Shown piece by piece: positions 262-41,820 of a stretch of DNA of 64,000 bases. Both the position numbers and the translations under genes were made by a program. Every line of letters begins with the position of its first letter. The first letter of the stretch is position 1. The notes under the pieces are model-generated. The model did no database searches and was not told the origin of the DNA. It saw only the letters and a program-made list of their open reading frames with translations. Source of the DNA: Escherichia coli (GTDB lineage Bacteria; Pseudomonadota; Gammaproteobacteria; Enterobacterales; Enterobacteriaceae); NCBI RefSeq assembly GCF_048403405.1, contig NZ_CP183136.1; one strand, 5' to 3'.

Positions 262-418
262 ACTTATATTATCATTTTGCGGCATTGCTGTGTCGTCTGA
301 TATACCTCAATTTCATCAACCGGCTTTCCGGTTGTCTGTAAATATTGTGCCCGCGAAAAATGGTCTGGCAGGAGGCTGCACAGTTACCGGGTATATATAA
401 GATGGGTTCCCGCTTCGC

Positions 419-494
419 GGGGCTTCGGCCAGTCAGCATTATCACTCATATGATATTTTTGTGTGTGGCCTTCCATGCCGCTGTCGCGGCATAA
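419..494. repeat. Diverged copy of a short element (core CCTTCCATGCCGCTG.CGCGGCATAA) also found near 39.1 kb and 47.7 kb
   Basis: Shared core sequence read directly at three loci; boundaries approximate. Confidence 0.4.
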
Positions 495-584
495 CCGGTA
501 TTTGACAATGTCTATAAGATTAATTGTTCTGCACACTGTTAATTTGCGGAAAGTGATTTCTTCGTGGTCGGAAGCCGGATGCCT

Positions 585-1031
585 TTACTGCTTTTTATCC
601 CAGGTATAAATCCGGTAAACCTCTGATGCGTAGGCAAGACGTCTCTGGTTCTGGCGTTCGGTCTTCCTGAATCCGGCATTGTATGCACCAACGGCCTCCC
701 AGGTGACGCCCCATTTTTTAAAGGCTATTGCCAGATAATAAGCACCGGTATAAATGTTCATACAGGGATCTGTTGTCAGATGTTCCGGCTTAATTCCATA
801 GCGGGCCAGTTCGTTAAAATGCTGGGAATCTACCTGCATCAGTCCGCTGCCATATCCCGTTACCGGATTAATACCGATGGCATTAACCCGGTAACGGGAT
901 TCTTGCCATGATATCGCTCTCAGTAAATCCGGGTCTATTTTGTAATCCCGACCTGCAAGATCAAAGCAATCAGTGGCTTCGCAGATCTCATTTATAAACA
1001 TCAGGCAGATTGTTAACATCCATTTTTTCAT
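585..1031 (-). CDS. Lytic transglycosylase (F-plasmid gene X / orf169 family)
   Basis: Translation matches IncF orf169-type transglycosylase; likely start is the MKKWML methionine at 1031, the ORF-track start at 1124 runs into oriT. Confidence 0.85.
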
Positions 1032-2824: not shown

Positions 2825-3229
2825 TTGAAAAGATTTGGTACACGTTCTGCAACAGGTAAGATGGTAAAACTAAAATTACCTGTAGATGTGGAAAGTCTAT
2901 TAATTGAGGCAAGTAACAGAAGCGGAAGAAGTCGATCGTTTGAGGCAGTAATAAGACTTAAAGATCATCTTCACCGCTATCCAAAGTTTAACAGGGCAGG
3001 GAATATCTATGGTAAGTCGCTGGTTAAGTATCTGACAATGCGTCTGGATGATGAAACTAACCAGCTACTTACTTGCAGCCAAAAATCGTAGTGGATGGTG
3101 TAAAACAGATGAGGCATGCAGACAGAGTTATTGATCATTTGATCAAGTTATCCTGATTTTTATAACTCGGAGAAATATTCAGGGAGGCAGATAGAAGAGG
3201 AACGATATCAACATTTAAATACACTCTAG
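2825..3229 (+). pseudogene. traY: traY (F-type), frame-disrupted in the 3' half
   Basis: ORF 2819-3091 matches the TraY N-terminal part then stops early; the remaining TraY-like residues are in other frames. Confidence 0.65.
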
Positions 3230-3266
3230 TTTTATTCATTTATCCGTATTAATTAGAGGTAATCTT

Positions 3267-4551: not shown

Positions 4552-5266
4552 TACGGCAATAATATTCGGCAGCCTGTTTTTTTCCTGCAGCGTGATGGCC
4601 GCAAACGGTACGCTGGCCCCCACCGTGGTGCCAATGGTGAACGGTGGTCAGGCCAGTATTGCCATCAGCAATACCAGCCCGAATCTGTTTACCGTTCCCG
4701 GTGACCGGATTATCGCCGTGAACAGTCTGGATGGTGCCCTGACCAATAATGAGCAGACCGCCTCCGGCGGTGTGGTGGTTGCCACCGTCAACAAAAAGCC
4801 CTTTACGTTCATTCTGGAAACAGAACGTGGTCTGAATCTTTCCATTCAGGCCGTTCCCCGTGAAGGCGCGGGGCGTACCATTCAGCTGGTCAGTGACCTG
4901 CGCGGAACCGGAGAAGAAGCCGGTGCGTGGGAAACGTCCACGCCTTACGAATCCCTGCTTGTGACCATCAGCCAGGCCGTCCGTGGCGGAAAATTACCCG
5001 CAGGCTGGTATCAGGTCCCAGTGACAAAGGAAACCCTGCAGGCCCCGGCGGGGCTGTCTTCAGTGGCAGATGCCGTATGGACGGGGAATCACCTGAAGAT
5101 GGTCCGCTTTGCCGTGGAAAATAAAACGCTGTCTGCCCTGAATATCCGGGAAAGTGACTTCTGGCAGCCGGGAACCCGTGCCGTGATGTTCAGCCAGCCT
5201 GCCAGCCAGTTACTGGCAGGTGCGCGCATGGATGTGTATGTCATCCGTGACGGGGAGGGCAACTGA
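4538..5266 (+). CDS. traK: TraK, secretin-like T4SS component
   Basis: 242-aa ORF with signal peptide; overlaps traE and traB as in F. Confidence 0.9.
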
Positions 5267-6693
5267 TGGCCAGTATCAATACCATTGTGAAACGCAAGCA
5301 GTACCTGTGGCTGGGGATTGTGGTTGTCGGTACAGCCTCCGCGATTGGTGGGGCACTGTATCTGTCTGATGTGGACATGTCCGGTAACGGTGAAACCGTG
5401 GCTGAACAGGAGCCTGTGCCGGATATGACCGGTGTGGTGGATACGACCTTTGATGACAAGGTGCGTCAGCATGCCACCACCGAGATGCAGGTGACGGCAG
5501 CGCAGATGCAGAAGCAGTATGAGGAAATCCGTCGTGAGCTGGATGTTCTGAACAAACAGCGCGGTGATGACCAGCGTCGTATTGAAAAGTTGGGACAGGA
5601 CAATGCCGCCCTGGCAGAGCAGGTAAAAGCCCTGGGTGCTAATCCCGTCACGGCGACCGGTGAGCCTGTACCGCAGATGCCTGCCTCACCGCCCGGCCCG
5701 GAAGGCGAACCACAGCCAGGAAACACCCCCGTATCCTTCCCGCCGCAGGGCAGCGTTGCTGTTCCACCGCCGACGGCGTTTTATCCCGGGAATGGTGTCA
5801 CGCCACCACCACAGGTGACGTACCAGTCTGTGCCGGTGCCTAACCGGATACAGCGTAAGGTGTTTACCCGTAATGAGGGAAAACAGGGACCATCACTGCC
5901 GTACATTCCGTCAGGAAGTTTTGCGAAAGCCATGCTGATTGAAGGGGCGGATGCCAATGCCTCTGTCACCGGTAATGAATCCACGGTGCCGATGCAGCTG
6001 CGTATCACCGGCCTGGTGGAAATGCCGAACAGCAAGACGTATGACGCAACGGGATGTTTTGTGGGTCTGGAAGCCTGGGGGGATGTGTCCAGTGAGCGTG
6101 CCATTGTACGCACCCGCAATATCAGTTGCCTGAAGGACGGCAAAACTATTGATATGCCGATTAAGGGGCATGTCAGCTTCCGGGGTAAAAACGGTATCAA
6201 GGGCGAAGTGGTGATGCGTAACGGCAAAATCCTCGGCTGGGCATGGGGCGCGGGATTTGTTGACGGTATCGGTCAGGGAATGGAGCGCGCCTCCCAGCCG
6301 GCTGTCGGGCTGGGTGCCACAGCCGCTTACGGGGCTGGTGATGTCCTGAAAATGGGTATCGGTGGCGGCGCATCGAAAGCCGCACAGACGCTCAGTGACT
6401 ACTACATCAAACGTGCCGAACAGTATCACCCGGTGATACCGATTGGTGCGGGCAACGAAGTGACCGTGGTGTTCCAGGACGGCTTCCAGCTGAAAACCGT
6501 GGAAGAGATGGCGCTGGAACGCACGCAGAGCAGAGCGGAAGAAGACAATCCGGAAAGTCCGGTTCCTGTTCCGCCATCGGCTGAAAGTCATCTTAACGGC
6601 TTTAATACTGACCAGATGCTGAAGCAGCTGGGCAACCTGAATCCGCAGCAGTTTATGTCCGGCAGCCAGGGAGGGGGCAACGATGGCAAATAA
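5266..6693 (+). CDS. traB: TraB, T4SS inner-membrane component (VirB10-like)
   Basis: 475-aa ORF with a proline-rich region and C-terminal conserved domain. Confidence 0.9.
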   Translation: MASINTIVKRKQYLWLGIVVVGTASAIGGALYLSDVDMSGNGETVAEQEPVPDMTGVVDTTFDDKVRQHATTEMQVTAAQMQKQYEEIRRELDVLNKQRGDDQRRIEKLGQDNAALAEQVKALGANPVTATGEPVPQMPASPPGPEGEPQPGNTPVSFPPQGSVAVPPPTAFYPGNGVTPPPQVTYQSVPVPNRIQRKVFTRNEGKQGPSLPYIPSGSFAKAMLIEGADANASVTGNESTVPMQLRITGLVEMPNSKTYDATGCFVGLEAWGDVSSERAIVRTRNISCLKDGKTIDMPIKGHVSFRGKNGIKGEVVMRNGKILGWAWGAGFVDGIGQGMERASQPAVGLGATAAYGAGDVLKMGIGGGASKAAQTLSDYYIKRAEQYHPVIPIGAGNEVTVVFQDGFQLKTVEEMALERTQSRAEEDNPESPVPVPPSAESHLNGFNTDQMLKQLGNLNPQQFMSGSQGGGNDGK

Positions 6694-7273
6694 TATGTCG
6701 TCCCGTCAGGCGTGCCATGCCGCCCGGTATGTTGTCGCCCGGGTTCTGCGAGGACTGTTCTGGTGTCTGAAGTACACCGTCATTCTGCCACTGGCCACAA
6801 TGGCCCTGATGGCTCTGTTTGTTTTATGGAAGGACAACACCACGCCGGGGAAATTACTGGTTAAGGAGATTAACTTCGTAAGACAAACAGCACCTGCCGG
6901 ACAGTTCCCGGTCAGTGAATGCTGGTTTTCTTCCTCTGATTCTTCAGGCAGATCAGAAATACAGGATATCTGCCATTACCGCGCGGCTGATGCTGCAGAT
7001 TATGTCAGGGAGACTGACCGGTCACTGATGCAACTGGTCACCGCATTATGGGCAACACTGGCACTGATGTATGTCTCGCTGGCAGCGATCACCGGGAAAT
7101 ATCCGGTGCGACCAGGAAAAATGAAATGTATCCGGGTGGTAACCGCAGATGAACATCTGAAGGAAGTTTATACGGAAGACGCTTCCCTGCCGGGAAAAAT
7201 CAGGAAATGCCCTGTTTATCTTCCTGATGACAGAACAAACAGAAACAACGGAGATAAAAATGAACATGCGTAA
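6683..7273 (+). CDS. traP: TraP
   Basis: 196-aa membrane protein ORF in the conserved position after traB. Confidence 0.85.
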   Translation: MANNMSSRQACHAARYVVARVLRGLFWCLKYTVILPLATMALMALFVLWKDNTTPGKLLVKEINFVRQTAPAGQFPVSECWFSSSDSSGRSEIQDICHYRAADAADYVRETDRSLMQLVTALWATLALMYVSLAAITGKYPVRPGKMKCIRVVTADEHLKEVYTEDASLPGKIRKCPVYLPDDRTNRNNGDKNEHA

Positions 7274-7457
7274 TATTAATGTTATTACAGCCCTCTCTGT
7301 GCCGGGTAAAACCGTGTCAGATGATTTTATGCATGCTGTTCTCAGTAACTGCGCCACAAGAATCGTACTTCCTGCACCGGAGAAATTCGGTTCTGAGTCA
7401 TTGCCGGACAATTTTAATATGACTGCTGTCGGTGTGATGAAGAATTCAGAAATATAA
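7260..7457 (+). CDS. trbD: TrbD
   Basis: Small ORF starting MNMRNINVIT... at the ATG at 7260 within ORF 7227-7457. Confidence 0.75.
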   Translation: MNMRNINVITALSVPGKTVSDDFMHAVLSNCATRIVLPAPEKFGSESLPDNFNMTAVGVMKNSEI

Positions 7458-7468
7458 GGAACCCTTCG

Positions 7469-7720
7469 ATGAATAAGCTGGTTTCTGATGGCAGCGTCAA
7501 AAAAATAAATTATCCGGTGCTGTATGAGTCCGGAATAACACCTCCGTTATGTGAAGTCAGTGCACCAGAACCTGATGCGGGTGGGAAACGCATTGTGGCA
7601 TATGTTTATAAATCATCACGGAGTACGGTTTTTGAAAATCCTGACATTGTAAAAACCTGTACGGTCAGGGATTTGAAGAAGGATTTTGTGAACTGCGATG
7701 AGAAAGGTGAGGGACAATGA
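7469..7720 (+). CDS. trbG: TrbG
   Basis: 83-aa ORF in conserved position between trbD and traV. Confidence 0.8.
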   Translation: MNKLVSDGSVKKINYPVLYESGITPPLCEVSAPEPDAGGKRIVAYVYKSSRSTVFENPDIVKTCTVRDLKKDFVNCDEKGEGQ

Positions 7721-8232
7721 AACAGATTTCTTTCTTTATTCCTCTGCTGGGGACCTTATTACTTTCCGGCTGTGCCGGAACCAGTACGGAATTTGAGTGT
7801 AACGCCACCACATCCGATACCTGTATGACGATGGAGCAGGCCAATGAGAAGGCCAAAAAACTGGAGCAGTCCTCAGAAGCAAAGCCGGTTGCGGCATCAC
7901 TGCCGCGCCTGGCTGAAGGGAACTTCCGGACAATGCCGGTGCAGACCGTCACCGCGACCACTCCGTCCGGCAGCAGACCTGCGGTGACAGCACATCCGGA
8001 GCAGAAACTGCTGGCACCTCGCCCGCTGTTTACCGCTGCCCGGGAAGTGAAAACGGTTGTTCCGGTCAGTTCAGTTACGCCGGTAACACCTCCTCGTCCG
8101 CTAAGAACGGGTGAGCAGACGGCAGCATTATGGATAGCGCCTTATATTGATAACCAGGATGTTTATCATCAGCCATCCAGCGTGTTTTTTGTTATTAAAC
8201 CGTCTGCGTGGGGAAAACCACGTATTAATTAA
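7717..8232 (+). CDS. traV: TraV, outer-membrane lipoprotein of the T4SS
   Basis: Lipobox LLSGCAG near the N-terminus; 171 aa. Confidence 0.9.
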   Translation: MKQISFFIPLLGTLLLSGCAGTSTEFECNATTSDTCMTMEQANEKAKKLEQSSEAKPVAASLPRLAEGNFRTMPVQTVTATTPSGSRPAVTAHPEQKLLAPRPLFTAAREVKTVVPVSSVTPVTPPRPLRTGEQTAALWIAPYIDNQDVYHQPSSVFFVIKPSAWGKPRIN

Positions 8233-8366
8233 CTGGCCCTGAAGTTGTATATCAGCCGGCAATGCCGGCGGGCTTTCTGTATTCAAAATCCGCCTGTAAA
8301 ACGAGTGCCCTGTGCGTGAAAAGGGATGGGCGGTAGCGTGTCAGAACATGTCGGGAGGAATATTCC

Positions 8367-8588
8367 GTGAGTGATGAAGCCGATGAAGCATATTCAGTGA
8401 CAGAACAACTGACCATGACAGGAATAAACCGGATACGCCAGAAAATAAATGCTCATGGTATTCCTGTTTATCTCTGTGAAGCATGCGGAAATCCTATTCC
8501 GGAAGCCCGGCGGAAAATATTTCCCGGTGTGACGTTGTGCGTTGAATGTCAGGCGTATCAGGAAAGACAGAGAAAACATTATGCATAA
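8367..8588 (+). CDS. traR: TraR, DksA/TraR-type zinc-finger protein
   Basis: 73-aa ORF with C4 motif CEACG...CVEC. Confidence 0.9.
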   Translation: MSDEADEAYSVTEQLTMTGINRIRQKINAHGIPVYLCEACGNPIPEARRKIFPGVTLCVECQAYQERQRKHYA

Positions 8589-8747
8589 GTCAGTCGCAGA
8601 ACATAGTGATTTAATTCCGGATGAACATGAGTGGATATTCAGAAAACAGAAATCTTTGTATATGCGCCGGGAAATGGCGCGTTAATTACAGGTATTCCCT
8701 TCATGGCTACCGCATTTCTCGCTTTATTTTTCAACTAAGGAATTCAT

Positions 8748-14023: not shown

Positions 14024-15828
14024 AACGTATTTTACCTCTGATACTGGCTCTGGTTGCCGGCATGGCACAGGCTGACAGCAACAGTGATTACCGGGCCGGC
14101 TCTGATTTTGCTCACCAGATCAAAGGGCAGGGAAGCAGCAGTATTCAGGGCTTTAAGCCACAGGAGAGTATCCCCGGCTATAACGCGAATCCGGACGAGA
14201 CAAAATATTACGGTGGCGTGACTGCCGGCGGGGATGGCGGCCTGAAAAATGACGGCACCACGGAATGGGCGACCGGTGAAACCGGAAAAACCATCACAGA
14301 GTCATTCATGAACAAGCCGAAAGACATTCTTTCACCGGATGCACCGTTTATCCAGACCGGCAGGGATGTGGTGAACCGGGCTGACAGCATTGTGGGAAAC
14401 ACCGGGCAGCAGTGCAGTGCGCAGGAGATTAGCCGGAGTGAATACACGAATTACACCTGTGAGAGGGATTTACAGGTGGAGCAGTACTGCACACGAACTG
14501 CCCGTATGGAGCTGCAGGGGAGTACCACATGGGAAACCCGGACGCTGGAGTATGAAATGAGTCAGCTACCTGCACGTGAAGTGAATGGTCAGTATGTTGT
14601 CTCCATTACCTCTCCCGTTACCGGTGAAATTGTCGATGCGCATTACAGCTGGAGTCGTACTTACCTGCAGAAGAGTGTACCTATGACAATTACAGTACTG
14701 GGAACCCCACTGAGCTGGAATGCCAAATACTCAGCAGATGCCTCATTTACACCAGTACAGAAAACACTGACTGCCGGTGTTGCTTTTACGTCATCTCACC
14801 CCGTCCGGGTCGGGAATACAAAATTCAAACGTCATACGGCAATGAAGCTGCGTCTGGTTGTCAGGGTAAAAAAAGCCTCGTACACCCCGTATGTTGTCTG
14901 GTCTGAAAGCTGCCCGTTCAGCAAGGAGCTGGGGAAACTGACAAAAACAGAATGTACGGAGGCTGGCGGGAACAGGACGCTGGTGAAAGACGGTCAGTCA
15001 TACAGCATGTACCAGAGCTGCTGGGCATACCGGGACACGTATGTCACGCAGTCAGCAGACAAGGGAACCTGTCAGACCTACACCGACAATCCTGCCTGTA
15101 CCCTGGTGTCACACCAGTGTGCCTTTTACTCCGAAGAAGGTGCCTGTCTGCATGAATATGCCACGTACTCCTGTGAGTCAAAAACATCCGGGAAAGTGAT
15201 GGTCTGTGGGGGAGACGTCTTCTGTCTCGATGGCGAATGCGATAAGGCTCAGAGCGGGCAGAGTAATGATTTTGCCGAAGCCGTTTCTCAGCTGGCGGCA
15301 CTGGCCGCAGCAGGTAAGGATGTTGCGGCGCTGAACGGGGTGGATGTCCGTGCTTTCACCGGTCAGGCGAAATTTTGTAAGAAGGCTGCAGCCGGATACA
15401 GCAACTGCTGTAAGGACAGCGGCTGGGGACAGGATATCGGGCTGGCCAAATGCAGCAGTGATGAAAAGGCCCTGGCTAAAGCAAAATCAAACAAACTGAC
15501 CGTCAGCGTCGGGGAGTTCTGTTCGAAGAAAGTGCTGGGTGTCTGTCTGGAGAAAAAACGCAGCTACTGTCAGTTTGATTCGAAGCTGGCGCAGATAGTC
15601 CAGCAGCAGGGGCGCAACGGTCAGTTGCGTATCAGTTTTGGTAGTGCGAAGCATCCTGACTGTCGGGGGATTACGGTTGATGAGCTGCAGAAAATTCAGT
15701 TCAACAGACTGGATTTCACTAACTTCTACGAAGACCTGATGAATAACCAGAAAATCCCGGACAGTGGCGTTCTGACGCAGAAAGTGAAAGAGCAGATTGC
15801 TGACCAGCTGAAACAGGCAGGACAGTAA
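14020..15828 (+). CDS. traN: TraN, cysteine-rich outer-membrane mating-pair stabilisation protein
   Basis: 602-aa ORF with signal peptide and many Cys in the C-terminal half. Confidence 0.95.
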   Translation: MKRILPLILALVAGMAQADSNSDYRAGSDFAHQIKGQGSSSIQGFKPQESIPGYNANPDETKYYGGVTAGGDGGLKNDGTTEWATGETGKTITESFMNKPKDILSPDAPFIQTGRDVVNRADSIVGNTGQQCSAQEISRSEYTNYTCERDLQVEQYCTRTARMELQGSTTWETRTLEYEMSQLPAREVNGQYVVSITSPVTGEIVDAHYSWSRTYLQKSVPMTITVLGTPLSWNAKYSADASFTPVQKTLTAGVAFTSSHPVRVGNTKFKRHTAMKLRLVVRVKKASYTPYVVWSESCPFSKELGKLTKTECTEAGGNRTLVKDGQSYSMYQSCWAYRDTYVTQSADKGTCQTYTDNPACTLVSHQCAFYSEEGACLHEYATYSCESKTSGKVMVCGGDVFCLDGECDKAQSGQSNDFAEAVSQLAALAAAGKDVAALNGVDVRAFTGQAKFCKKAAAGYSNCCKDSGWGQDIGLAKCSSDEKALAKAKSNKLTVSVGEFCSKKVLGVCLEKKRSYCQFDSKLAQIVQQQGRNGQLRISFGSAKHPDCRGITVDELQKIQFNRLDFTNFYEDLMNNQKIPDSGVLTQKVKEQIADQLKQAGQ

Positions 15829-39433: not shown

Positions 39434-39697
39434 ATGAATAGCACCACACATTACGAAAACGCCAATTTCCTGCGCGAGCTGGCCGAAAGCCTGCCTCGTA
39501 TTTTTCCAGAAGGCAGTACAGACAAGTCTGCACTATTGCAACGCCTCGCTAATGAAGAACTGGCACGGGCGGAATACGACGAACAGATCCGAGCGAAAGT
39601 TGCCGCTGCCCGCGCCGATAAGCGGCCGGGAATGAGTTCCGCGCAACTGCGCCAGCAACTACAGGGACGTTATCAGGAACTGCGCAATGAGTTATGA
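39434..39697 (+). CDS. Type II antitoxin (ParD/RelB-like)
   Basis: 87-aa ORF overlapping by 11 nt the downstream toxin ORF. Confidence 0.65.
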   Translation: MNSTTHYENANFLRELAESLPRIFPEGSTDKSALLQRLANEELARAEYDEQIRAKVAAARADKRPGMSSAQLRQQLQGRYQELRNEL

Positions 39698-39986
39698 AAT
39701 AGAATGGCGACCAGGTGCGATTGAGGATATAACGGCGTTGTTTGAATATCTGGTCGAGAATGCATCTCTTTGGGATGCAAGGAACGTGACAGAGCGTCTG
39801 ATCACTGCAACCGATCGCCTGGCTGATTACCCCAGGCTGTATGAAACGGATGAACGCTATGGTGAAGGGGTTCGCCGTATTAGCTTACTTGGACAGCATG
39901 TACTTTATGAAGTGAATGATGAGGCCAGTCGTGTCAATATCCTGGCGGTTGTAGGCCAGCGTCAGAATCCCCGATTCATTCTTTGA
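39687..39986 (+). CDS. Type II toxin of the RelE/ParE superfamily
   Basis: 99-aa ORF with RelE/ParE-like character, overlapping the upstream antitoxin. Confidence 0.7.
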   Translation: MSYEIEWRPGAIEDITALFEYLVENASLWDARNVTERLITATDRLADYPRLYETDERYGEGVRRISLLGQHVLYEVNDEASRVNILAVVGQRQNPRFIL

Positions 39987-40021
39987 GTGTCCGGCTTGGA
40001 ACTCCATCTTCAGAGAATCGA

Positions 40022-40687
40022 TCAACGTTCTTTAGCTCCTTCCACTAACAGCCGACCTATCTCAAACACCGCAGCTGACCGTCCCGACTTCACCGCTTCG
40101 GCTTTCTGTCCCTCAACAAACCAGTTATTACCGTCCGTTCGGACCAACTCAAACATCCATGACATATCGTAAACGTGTTCCGGGATCAGCGACCCTTCTC
40201 CGGCCAGAATACCCGCCGTTATGGAGTGGTTGCCCCCGTGCACAAAGCCAATACGCCAGGGCAACCACAGGTCAACATAGTGGTTGTTTTTATCTTGCTT
40301 CCACGGCTTCCCCTTATGGGTTCCAATGCGTGAAACGTTATCGATATAGCGTGGTAGGCTCCAAGGCCACGGCAGCACTATGTCGCTTGCCAGCGACAAC
40401 GGATAATCAGCGCCGTTCATCTCACACTCTTTCATCTTTTCGTAAGATTGTATTTGGGTAAGTCCCTTAAAGAAGAACTCCTGCGGGGTCATATCCGGGC
40501 GGGCATCTGTTCCCTCCTCAGCTACCGCCAGCAAGAAATCACTCTGTACTGGCCGCACGATAGCGCGAATGAGATCTGGTAGCGCCTTAACGGGTAGTTT
40601 CTCTGCCACAGAAAGCAGATGATTGAAGCGTTTTTTTTCATTGGCTATAGTTGCTTTATCTTTCTTGTTTCGGTTCCAGAACATCAC
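40022..40687 (-). CDS. Hypothetical protein, 221 aa, no recognised domain
   Basis: Clean ORF convergent with the TA pair, same strand as the mcb operon, separated from mcbG by about 570 bp without ORFs. Confidence 0.5.
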   Translation of the reverse strand: MMFWNRNKKDKATIANEKKRFNHLLSVAEKLPVKALPDLIRAIVRPVQSDFLLAVAEEGTDARPDMTPQEFFFKGLTQIQSYEKMKECEMNGADYPLSLASDIVLPWPWSLPRYIDNVSRIGTHKGKPWKQDKNNHYVDLWLPWRIGFVHGGNHSITAGILAGEGSLIPEHVYDMSWMFELVRTDGNNWFVEGQKAEAVKSGRSAAVFEIGRLLVEGAKER

Positions 40688-41256
40688 TGTCTGTAGCCCT
40701 CCTTATCGTGATCAGGATGATGGTTTTCATTCTAATGGTGTAGTAGTTTCACGTCACGCGCACGTGCATATTCTTCGAAAGCTTCGGCGTTAGCCGGTCA
40801 ACCAGGGGGTTGAGGCCCAACCGTACGAGATCGTACGCTAAGTTCATTTTTTGAGCAGAAGAGGTGAGTAAAGAAAACGAGGGTTTTGTTTACTCTTCCC
40901 GTCAATGCCAGTAGCCATGCGGTTTCAGGGACTTTCAGTGTTAATAAACTCGGTAATCAAATCAACGTAAACCTGCCTAACAACGCCACGACTTTATTGA
41001 CTTAAAATCATATAGTTAGCTTCTTAGCGTACGTTTCCGCTCCATTGGGCTTCAAACCCCACACCCAATGACATGAGAAAAGCTGGATCTGATTCTCAAA
41101 ATGCTGGGATACCCATCGAGATGGAGAACTCAGTCAATGTTCCATTCTTTCTGAAATATGTGTGGGGACACTGATCTGTCGGGAGCCGGATGCGGTAGTT
41201 CCGCAGGTCCGGTTCTGAGGAGGGGCCCGTCCGGGCAACCGGCGGGTCTACTCACC

Positions 41257-41820
41257 TCATCCCCCTACAACCACTCCCATTCGTTTAAGTATTTTTAAAC
41301 CTGCTTCCTGTGGTATCTTTATAGATAAGATCCTGTTTATCTCAGGATTTATATCGAGACCTTCTGTCATTGAAAAATCACAGTGAGACAAATCAGAATG
41401 TCTGAACTCTGTATTATTAAACTCCGAACCAGTAAAATCAGATTTACGAAGGTCTGTTTCCTCAAATAAACAATCACGGAAGCGACTGGATAAAAAAATA
41501 GATTTCTGTAACCGTAAACTAATAAAATCAACAAATCTCAAATCACAATTTACAAGAGAAAAAGTACAGGGAAACATAATGTCTGCTGCATTTACTCCTT
41601 GTAATAAACAATCTTTGAATTCACAGTCAATAAGTTTAAAAAAATTAAGTTTTAAATTCTTTATTGAGCAGTTTACGAAGCGACATTTTTCGAACTCACA
41701 ATCGCGAAAGTTAAAGTTGTCAAGCTGTATTCGTTCAAATATACAATTGTAATAATTTACACCTGATAATTCACTTTCACTGAGGTGTCGTTTTGTGATT
41801 CTTTTTTCTATTATATCCAT
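41257..41820 (-). CDS. mcbG: McbG, pentapeptide-repeat microcin B17 immunity protein
   Basis: 187-aa ORF made of pentapeptide-like repeats; last gene of the operon. Confidence 0.9.
   Translation of the reverse strand: MDIIEKRITKRHLSESELSGVNYYNCIFERIQLDNFNFRDCEFEKCRFVNCSIKNLKLNFFKLIDCEFKDCLLQGVNAADIMFPCTFSLVNCDLRFVDFISLRLQKSIFLSSRFRDCLFEETDLRKSDFTGSEFNNTEFRHSDLSHCDFSMTEGLDINPEINRILSIKIPQEAGLKILKRMGVVVGG

Follow-up and report, generated by a model that had tools for sequence, protein, structure and literature searches.

The window that we analysed is a stretch of 64,000 nucleotides of Escherichia coli DNA, and the locus described here lies in it between a ParE/RelE-type toxin-antitoxin pair and mcbG (Table 1). 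It consists of an open reading frame of 221 codons, in the same orientation as the mcb operon, and of the gap that separates this frame from mcbG, which covers 569 bp (40688-41256) and contains no ORF longer than 41 aa. A sequence-only reading had described a clean ORF and a spacer of about 570 bp without an ORF of at least 60 aa, and on both points, as on the flanking genes, it was correct. The toxin-antitoxin pair is convergent with the 221-aa gene, with 35 bp between the stop codons. The RefSeq annotation of an E. coli plasmid with 100% identity, p0.1229_2 (NZ_CP028322.1), confirms this context: its plus strand carries IncFII repA, an antitoxin and a toxin of the ParE/RelE type, after which the minus strand encodes a "DUF6710 family protein", then mcbG, mcbF, mcbE, the YcaO, SagB and McbB proteins, and lastly the precursor of microcin B17.

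Table 1. Features of the locus (window coordinates unless stated otherwise)
Feature	Position	Strand	Description and evidence
ParE/RelE-type toxin-antitoxin pair	39434-39697, 39687-39986	plus	ORFs and RefSeq annotation
fipA-like ORF	40022..40687	minus	221 aa; ORF list and sequence; identical to RefSeq WP_001535733.1
Shine-Dalgarno AAGGAGGG	40697..40704	minus	about 10 nt ahead of the fipA-like GTG start
Dead traI/mobF 3' remnant, IncN-type MOBF relaxase	40688..40804	minus	blastn and alignment to pSW25H01 and R46
Promoter-like hexamers GTGACG-17-TAGAAT	40729..40757	minus	within the traI remnant; consensus scan, 9/12 match, weak
Miniature inverted-repeat element, 256 bp	40805..41060		Tn3-family-type 38-bp terminal repeats; no transposase gene
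256-bp element, three other copies	2501-2757; 3001-3256; 345-600		positions in the plasmid segments compared
Group II intron 3' end, ~196 nt	41061..41256	plus	frameshifted ltrA C-terminal end and domains V/VI
mcbG	41257..41820	minus	last microcin B17 operon gene; annotated pentapeptide-repeat protein near mcbE/mcbF and the microcin B17 TOMM gene

The ORF starts with GTG at 40687, the next codon (40684) being ATG, as read from the sequence. The AAGGAGGG Shine-Dalgarno sequence ahead of it is unchanged in alignments of the window, an IncN plasmid copy and an orphan copy on a Klebsiella plasmid. A homology search with the ORF found 287 homologues, and the protein family comprises 975 cluster representatives at E<=0.001. 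Given these counts and a dN/dS of 0.135 (dS 0.49) against the nearest IncN homologue, the ORF is a real gene. This ratio and that of 0.17 against the Klebsiella orphan copy indicate purifying selection on the gene, a signal that is not assignable to the orphan branch, since most of the divergence may be older than the capture.

The sequence-only reading had placed the protein in no recognisable family, a view that did not survive profile and structure searches. The protein matches Pfam family PF20457 (DUF6710) with E=1.3e-48, residues 13-216 of the 221 aligning with model positions 8-200 of 205, and it is 50% identical over 200 aa, which is nearly its full length (E=1e-76), to Fip of R46, the IncN parent of pKM101. 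The R46 protein is deposited as WP_010999966.1, AAB97288.1, AAL13396.1 and UniProt Q56054 'Fip', and R46 is listed in the FipA-homologue column of Table S2 of Getino et al. 2017. The exact 221-aa sequence carries the name 'Fip' in UniRef (A0A0J2H1J2), as do its close homologues, and it is from these names that the gene can be identified. Foldseek comparison of the AF2 model with AFDB50 returned family members only, many of them labelled Fip/FipA, "fertility inhibition of IncP plasmids protein". The window protein has all of the residues that are invariant in DUF6710, as read in alignments of 32 and 110 sequences: W109, W129, N135-H136, P143, G152-N153-H154-S155, D174, D185-G186, E209 and G211-R212. 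N135-H136, G152-N153-H154-S155, D174, E209 and R212 are among the invariant positions shared with pKM101/R46 FipA. Scans of the protein against NCBIfam, PADLOC and PHROGs gave no match. Judged by its sequence, the gene is an orphan fipA and belongs to a family that is already known and named (Fip/FipA = DUF6710). The exact sequence is already present in RefSeq and UniRef, and the gene is not an unknown. We regard the family identity, together with the anatomy of the spacer given below, as almost certain.

Naming of the family differs between databases. RefSeq (PGAP) calls the R46 FipA prototype and all of its relatives 'DUF6710 family protein', UniProt calls them 'Fip', and one AFDB entry wrongly spells out Fip as 'Filamentous bacteriophage production protein'. 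DUF6710 thus has an experimentally characterised member, FipA, which the family name does not show. In the literature searched, no paper mentions DUF6710 or PF20457, and none connects DUF6710 with FipA. On hundreds of plasmids (IncF, IncN, Klebsiella), genes that are annotated as "hypothetical" or as "DUF6710 family protein" become readable as fipA-type fertility inhibitors.

R46 carries one DUF6710 gene (14184-14810, 208 aa), which directly follows and overlaps the MOBF relaxase gene traI/mobF and faces nuc, a gene of the phospholipase D family; the same traI-fipA-nuc layout is repeated in two other IncN plasmids. The closest relatives of the window protein, with 87-88% amino acid identity, are encoded on IncN-typed plasmids of 43-82 kb, where the gene likewise follows mobF and so holds the traI-fipA position. 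At the DNA level, homology to IncN-typed plasmids covers 40031-40776, one limit lying only a few bases from the fipA stop codon. The part upstream of the gene is 82-85% identical to mobF 3' ends by blastn; it is clearly homologous over 40693-40776, while the final ~28 nt before the inverted-repeat element are assigned to traI by position only. In IncN plasmids the fipA Shine-Dalgarno AAGGAGGG is embedded in the final traI codons. Ahead of the fipA start in the window, the traI frame is still legible (…EEYARARDVKLLHH, stop, NENHHPDHDKEGYRQ, stop), and because of the two in-frame stops this remnant is a dead stump. On sequence comparison, then, both the origin of the gene and its junctions are established. 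We propose that a fragment of ~785 bp (about 40020-40804) would have been cut from an IncN2/N3-like traK-traJ-traI-fipA operon and transferred to the IncFII microcin-B17 plasmid; its content is the intact fipA with its own Shine-Dalgarno sequence and at most 117 nt of traI.

Unlike IncN fipA, the window gene is not directly downstream of a MOBF relaxase traI, an arrangement that the wider family does not require. It stands alone on an IncFII microcin plasmid, split from traK-traJ-traI, with only the dead 117-nt traI stump upstream, and it adjoins a toxin-antitoxin pair and a replicon. Comparable cases were found on a Klebsiella IncFIB plasmid, where an orphan fipA-type gene lies beside RepB and has kept a decayed, frameshifted traI tail, and on a Burkholderia Rep3 plasmid, where a DUF6710 member lies between parAB and a YefM/YoeB toxin-antitoxin pair. 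From these two cases, orphan fipA-type genes beside maintenance modules (replication, partition, toxin-antitoxin) are recurrent. Non-IncN plasmids with FipA homologues had already been tabulated in 2017 (Getino et al. 2017, Table S2).

The whole 569-bp spacer is a three-part scar that consists of the traI remnant, a Tn3-type miniature element and the 3' remnant of a group II intron. The earlier suggestion that it might be the scar of an older rearrangement therefore holds over its full length, and the suggestion of a small RNA does not: at a permissive threshold, Rfam matched nothing in the spacer region beyond the domain V/VI remnant of the intron and chance hits. The terminal repeats of the miniature element, at 40805-40842 and 41023-41060, are 38 nt long (GGGGGTTGAGGCCCAACCGTACGAGATCGTACGCTAAG and its partner), are 76% complementary and match Tn3-family transposon termini in many plasmids by blastn. 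In its 256-bp length, its Tn3-family-type repeats (GGGG...ACGCTAAG), its lack of a transposase gene and its presence in several unrelated plasmid contexts the element resembles Tn3-derived miniature elements of the TIME/MITE type. We found it with unrelated flanks in four plasmids, namely that of the window, pEC488-3, pKP46_1 and the MS 196-1 mcb plasmid. Unlike Tn3-type insertions, none of the four aligned copies has a 5-bp target-site duplication, the flanks being different, and no named element was matched. The element may be a recombination joint and may not be a simple insertion. The MS 196-1 mcb plasmid has the same element-intron-mcbG junction and another left flank, so the point at which fipA was attached is the left end of this element; according to our model, the fipA fragment would have been linked to the mcb region through this element. 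The left-hand flanks of these two mcb plasmids diverge at the 256-bp element.

The intron remnant shares ~94% identity with the 3' termini of ltrA-annotated full-length introns, such as those of E. coli plasmids, and has a recognisable domain V/VI (Rfam RF00029, 41181-41256, 34.4 bits, E=2.9e-4, below the gathering score of 40). For comparison, an intact relative in pMS6198B has domains D1-D4 (101 bits), an ORF of 531 aa and D5/D6 at 39.9 bits. Unlike complete group II introns, the copy in the window has lost domains I-IV together with almost the entire reverse transcriptase gene: homology begins only at 41061, the residual reading frame is frameshifted, and Rfam gave no match to D1-D4 in this region. 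It is a dead remnant. It lies antisense to mcbG, its last base immediately next to the mcbG stop codon, and we suppose that the intron would have inserted antisense right after that codon, the 256-bp element now sitting against its 3' stump. For ~20 nt past the intron end, the window (41245-41280; TCACCTCATCCCCCTACAAC) and the pMS6198B site (5190-5225 in the segment compared; TCAACTCAGACCCCTTGAAC) are ~70% alike, which suggests a shared homing-site preference that overlaps the last mcbG codons by chance. A 13-nt inverted repeat (GAAGAGGTGAGTA / TACTCACCTCATC; 40858-40870 and 41249-41261), 92% complementary with 378 nt between its arms, spans from the interior of the 256-bp element to the intron end and the mcbG stop codon. 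It is probably due to chance and could pair on a read-through transcript. The locus is thus largely explained, with a spacer that is mobile-element debris throughout.

Transfer of the fragment has deprived the window fipA of its native operon promoter and of translational coupling to traI. A consensus scan for promoters found 3 sites where 1.7 were expected, which is no excess over chance. One of them lies in the traI remnant, where a substitution at 40731-40733 (minus strand) changes the IncN GAG to TAG and thereby produces an in-frame traI stop and completes the -10-like TAGAAT. This hexamer lies 42 nt upstream of the fipA start and is absent from the IncN copy, which has GAGCAC there, and from the Klebsiella orphan copy. 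We did not rely on this site as a promoter, as it matches the consensus at only 9 of 12 positions and is lineage-specific. Between mcbG and fipA, the minus strand has no terminator-like site. The fipA transcript could come from read-through of the co-oriented mcb operon, from the weak promoter-like site in the traI remnant, or from both; read-through would be the simplest source, and translation would start from the gene's own Shine-Dalgarno sequence.

A possible role for the gene can be drawn from pKM101. In PMC5696584, fipA of IncN plasmids is described as an inhibitor of IncP plasmid fertility; pKM101 FipA is reported there to inhibit RP4 conjugation via the TraG coupling protein (citing Santini and Stanisich 1998) and also to block Agrobacterium T-DNA transfer (citing Maindola et al. 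2014). PMC5027574 names fipA at the traI-adjacent position of the IncN backbone, where the gene is a known insertion hot-spot and hence dispensable for IncN plasmids. By analogy, when a rival IncP or VirB/D4-type conjugative plasmid is in the same cell, the window FipA would block its transfer via the TraG/VirD4-type coupling protein of the rival, and the F-type transfer of the host plasmid itself would be left untouched. Taken as a whole, the reading of the orphan fipA as a plasmid-captured IncN gene that blocks the transfer of rivals is the best explanation and, in our judgement, a very probable one. That this copy does inhibit fertility we hold to be somewhat probable, the functional argument resting on homology to one prototype that is 50% identical; we infer its inhibitory activity, target range and promoter by analogy. 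If the activity is retained, a microcin-producing IncFII plasmid that is often met in clinical E. coli may also hold back broad-host-range resistance plasmids of the IncP type that share its cell. Such suppression, if true, would have an effect on plasmid epidemiology, and is a modest testable point and no discovery.

Its place between a toxin-antitoxin pair and a bacteriocin operon had led to the idea that the gene could serve in immunity, stress or defence, and one could take it for an accessory immunity, export or stress factor of the mcb operon. It has the same orientation as mcbA-G and lies 569 bp downstream without a terminator-like site between, and the arrangement is 100% conserved across dozens of plasmids. 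However, homologues occur, without any mcb genes, in the transfer operons of IncN plasmids, in ICEs and on unrelated plasmids, and three mobile-element fragments separate the gene from mcbG. Among PLSDB plasmids, mcbEFG is present at >=95% identity in ~129, and the fipA-spacer-mcbG arrangement at >=80% coverage in only 71 records; other left flanks occur, and some mcb plasmids have a truncated fipA or none, from which it follows that the gene is dispensable. It is a facultative neighbour of the mcb operon and not a part of it, and nothing links the locus to microcin immunity. We rejected an accessory microcin role on this synteny, and consider it extremely improbable. What is left of the idea is defence in the restricted sense of conflict between plasmids. 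A broader version, in which DUF6710 proteins would be effectors of a general defence against invaders such as phages and not specific inhibitors of conjugation, draws on the width of the family (the 975 representatives range from Proteobacteria to Firmicutes), on its enzyme-like invariant residues and on a Pseudomonas alliivorans member that lies in a chromosomal defence island, directly behind a CBASS-like operon. That island is one context among ~10 sampled, though, neither PADLOC nor PHROGs gave a match, and fertility inhibition is the sole experimental phenotype in the family, so that this version is very unlikely.

Lack of expression is a more serious rival to capture of a working fertility inhibitor. 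The gene could be a silent hitch-hiker, that is, a fragment of an IncN plasmid that is intact and unexpressed and has its decay still to come. Its operon promoter has been cut off, the adjoining piece of traI is already dead, no convincing promoter was found, and truncated variants of the gene occur. Copies in this plasmid lineage are ~100% identical, which points to a recent capture that would have left little time for decay. Against this, the ends of the fragment fit tightly round the intact gene and its Shine-Dalgarno sequence, and read-through from the mcb operon is possible. Moreover, two independent orphan lineages, those of the window and of the Klebsiella IncFIB plasmid, have kept the ORF intact while their traI tails decayed, with the dN/dS of 0.17 between them. 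On balance we think a silent passenger unlikely, and prefer capture of a gene that blocks rival plasmids.

For hints of the way in which FipA might act, we examined its modelled fold and its conserved residues. The AF2 model of the 221-aa protein is confident (pLDDT 93.8, pTM 0.88) and comprises a pair of long helices at the N-terminus and an alpha/beta core. In the 110-sequence alignment N135-H136, G152-N153-H154-S155, D174, D185-G186, E209 and G211-R212 form a nearly invariant polar set, a pattern that looks catalytic. The sulfiredoxin (Srx) fold has the order beta-alpha-beta-beta-motif-alpha-beta, with GGCHR at the motif junction. We hypothesize that the order of elements around GGNHS in the model agrees with this fold. 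According to PMC4619093, which quotes Maindola 2014, the IncW fertility inhibitor Osa is an ATPase/DNase with a ParB/Srx fold; its structures are in the PDB (4o7k/4ovb). Osa/FiwA (PF22162) are IncW/IncP fertility inhibitors of the ParB/Srx fold, and PMC5696584 regards FipA as unrelated in sequence to Osa/FiwA and to PifC. In a tentative extension of these observations, FipA/DUF6710 proteins would be cryptic, highly diverged ParB/sulfiredoxin-fold enzymes, and their stand-alone genes a widespread anti-conjugation weapon. GGNHS (152-155, at a strand-to-helix junction) would then be the counterpart of Srx GGCHR and of the ParB DGxHR/GERR phosphate-binding motif, and FipA would be catalytic like Osa, as an NTPase and/or nuclease on DNA docked at the coupling protein. 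Beside replicons and in defence islands, fipA genes of the stand-alone kind would act autonomously in this role.

Comparison of profiles and structures argues against this extension. Foldseek of the AF2 model against the PDB gave no significant match, and PDB sequence searches with the 32- and 110-sequence profiles gave only chance matches (FtsE, plastin, arginase). By hhalign, DUF6710 reached a probability of 0.6% against Osa and 0.2% each against human Srx and a plasmid ParB; against an Srx alignment it scored 0.15%, a weak test, the alignment being one of vertebrate sequences with low diversity. ParB_N of Pfam was matched by none of the 110 DUF6710 members, and no sequence-profile link to PF02195 or to Osa PF22162 was found. 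We regard the ParB/Srx proposal as doubtful. A possible ParB/Srx-like catalytic core is the only moderately interesting thread left at this locus, and if true would offer a first way into the mechanism of FipA and bring together two "unrelated" fertility inhibitors.

DUF6710 spans Proteobacteria and Firmicutes, and the members sampled all lie on mobile elements, namely IncN plasmids, an MPF_G-type ICE, a primase-bearing element and other plasmids, with one in the P. alliivorans defence island; no conserved partner gene was seen among the ~10 contexts sampled. In the P. alliivorans chromosome (4724-8705 of the segment), the DUF6710/FipA gene is on the same strand as, and directly downstream of, the CBASS-like operon, which encodes a SMODS cyclase, a bacterial HORMA protein, a Trip13-like AAA protein and an RNase_T exonuclease. 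The opposite strand of this island carries a BrxR/WYL regulator and a Cap17-like/PNP effector. In a metagenomic ICE-like contig (2145-5800), a DUF6710 gene lies between the type IV secretion genes RAQPRD, DUF3262, DUF2976 and DUF3487 and a TraG-D_C coupling-protein gene. In this MPF_G-type ICE the gene therefore adjoins the class of coupling protein that is thought to be the target of FipA.
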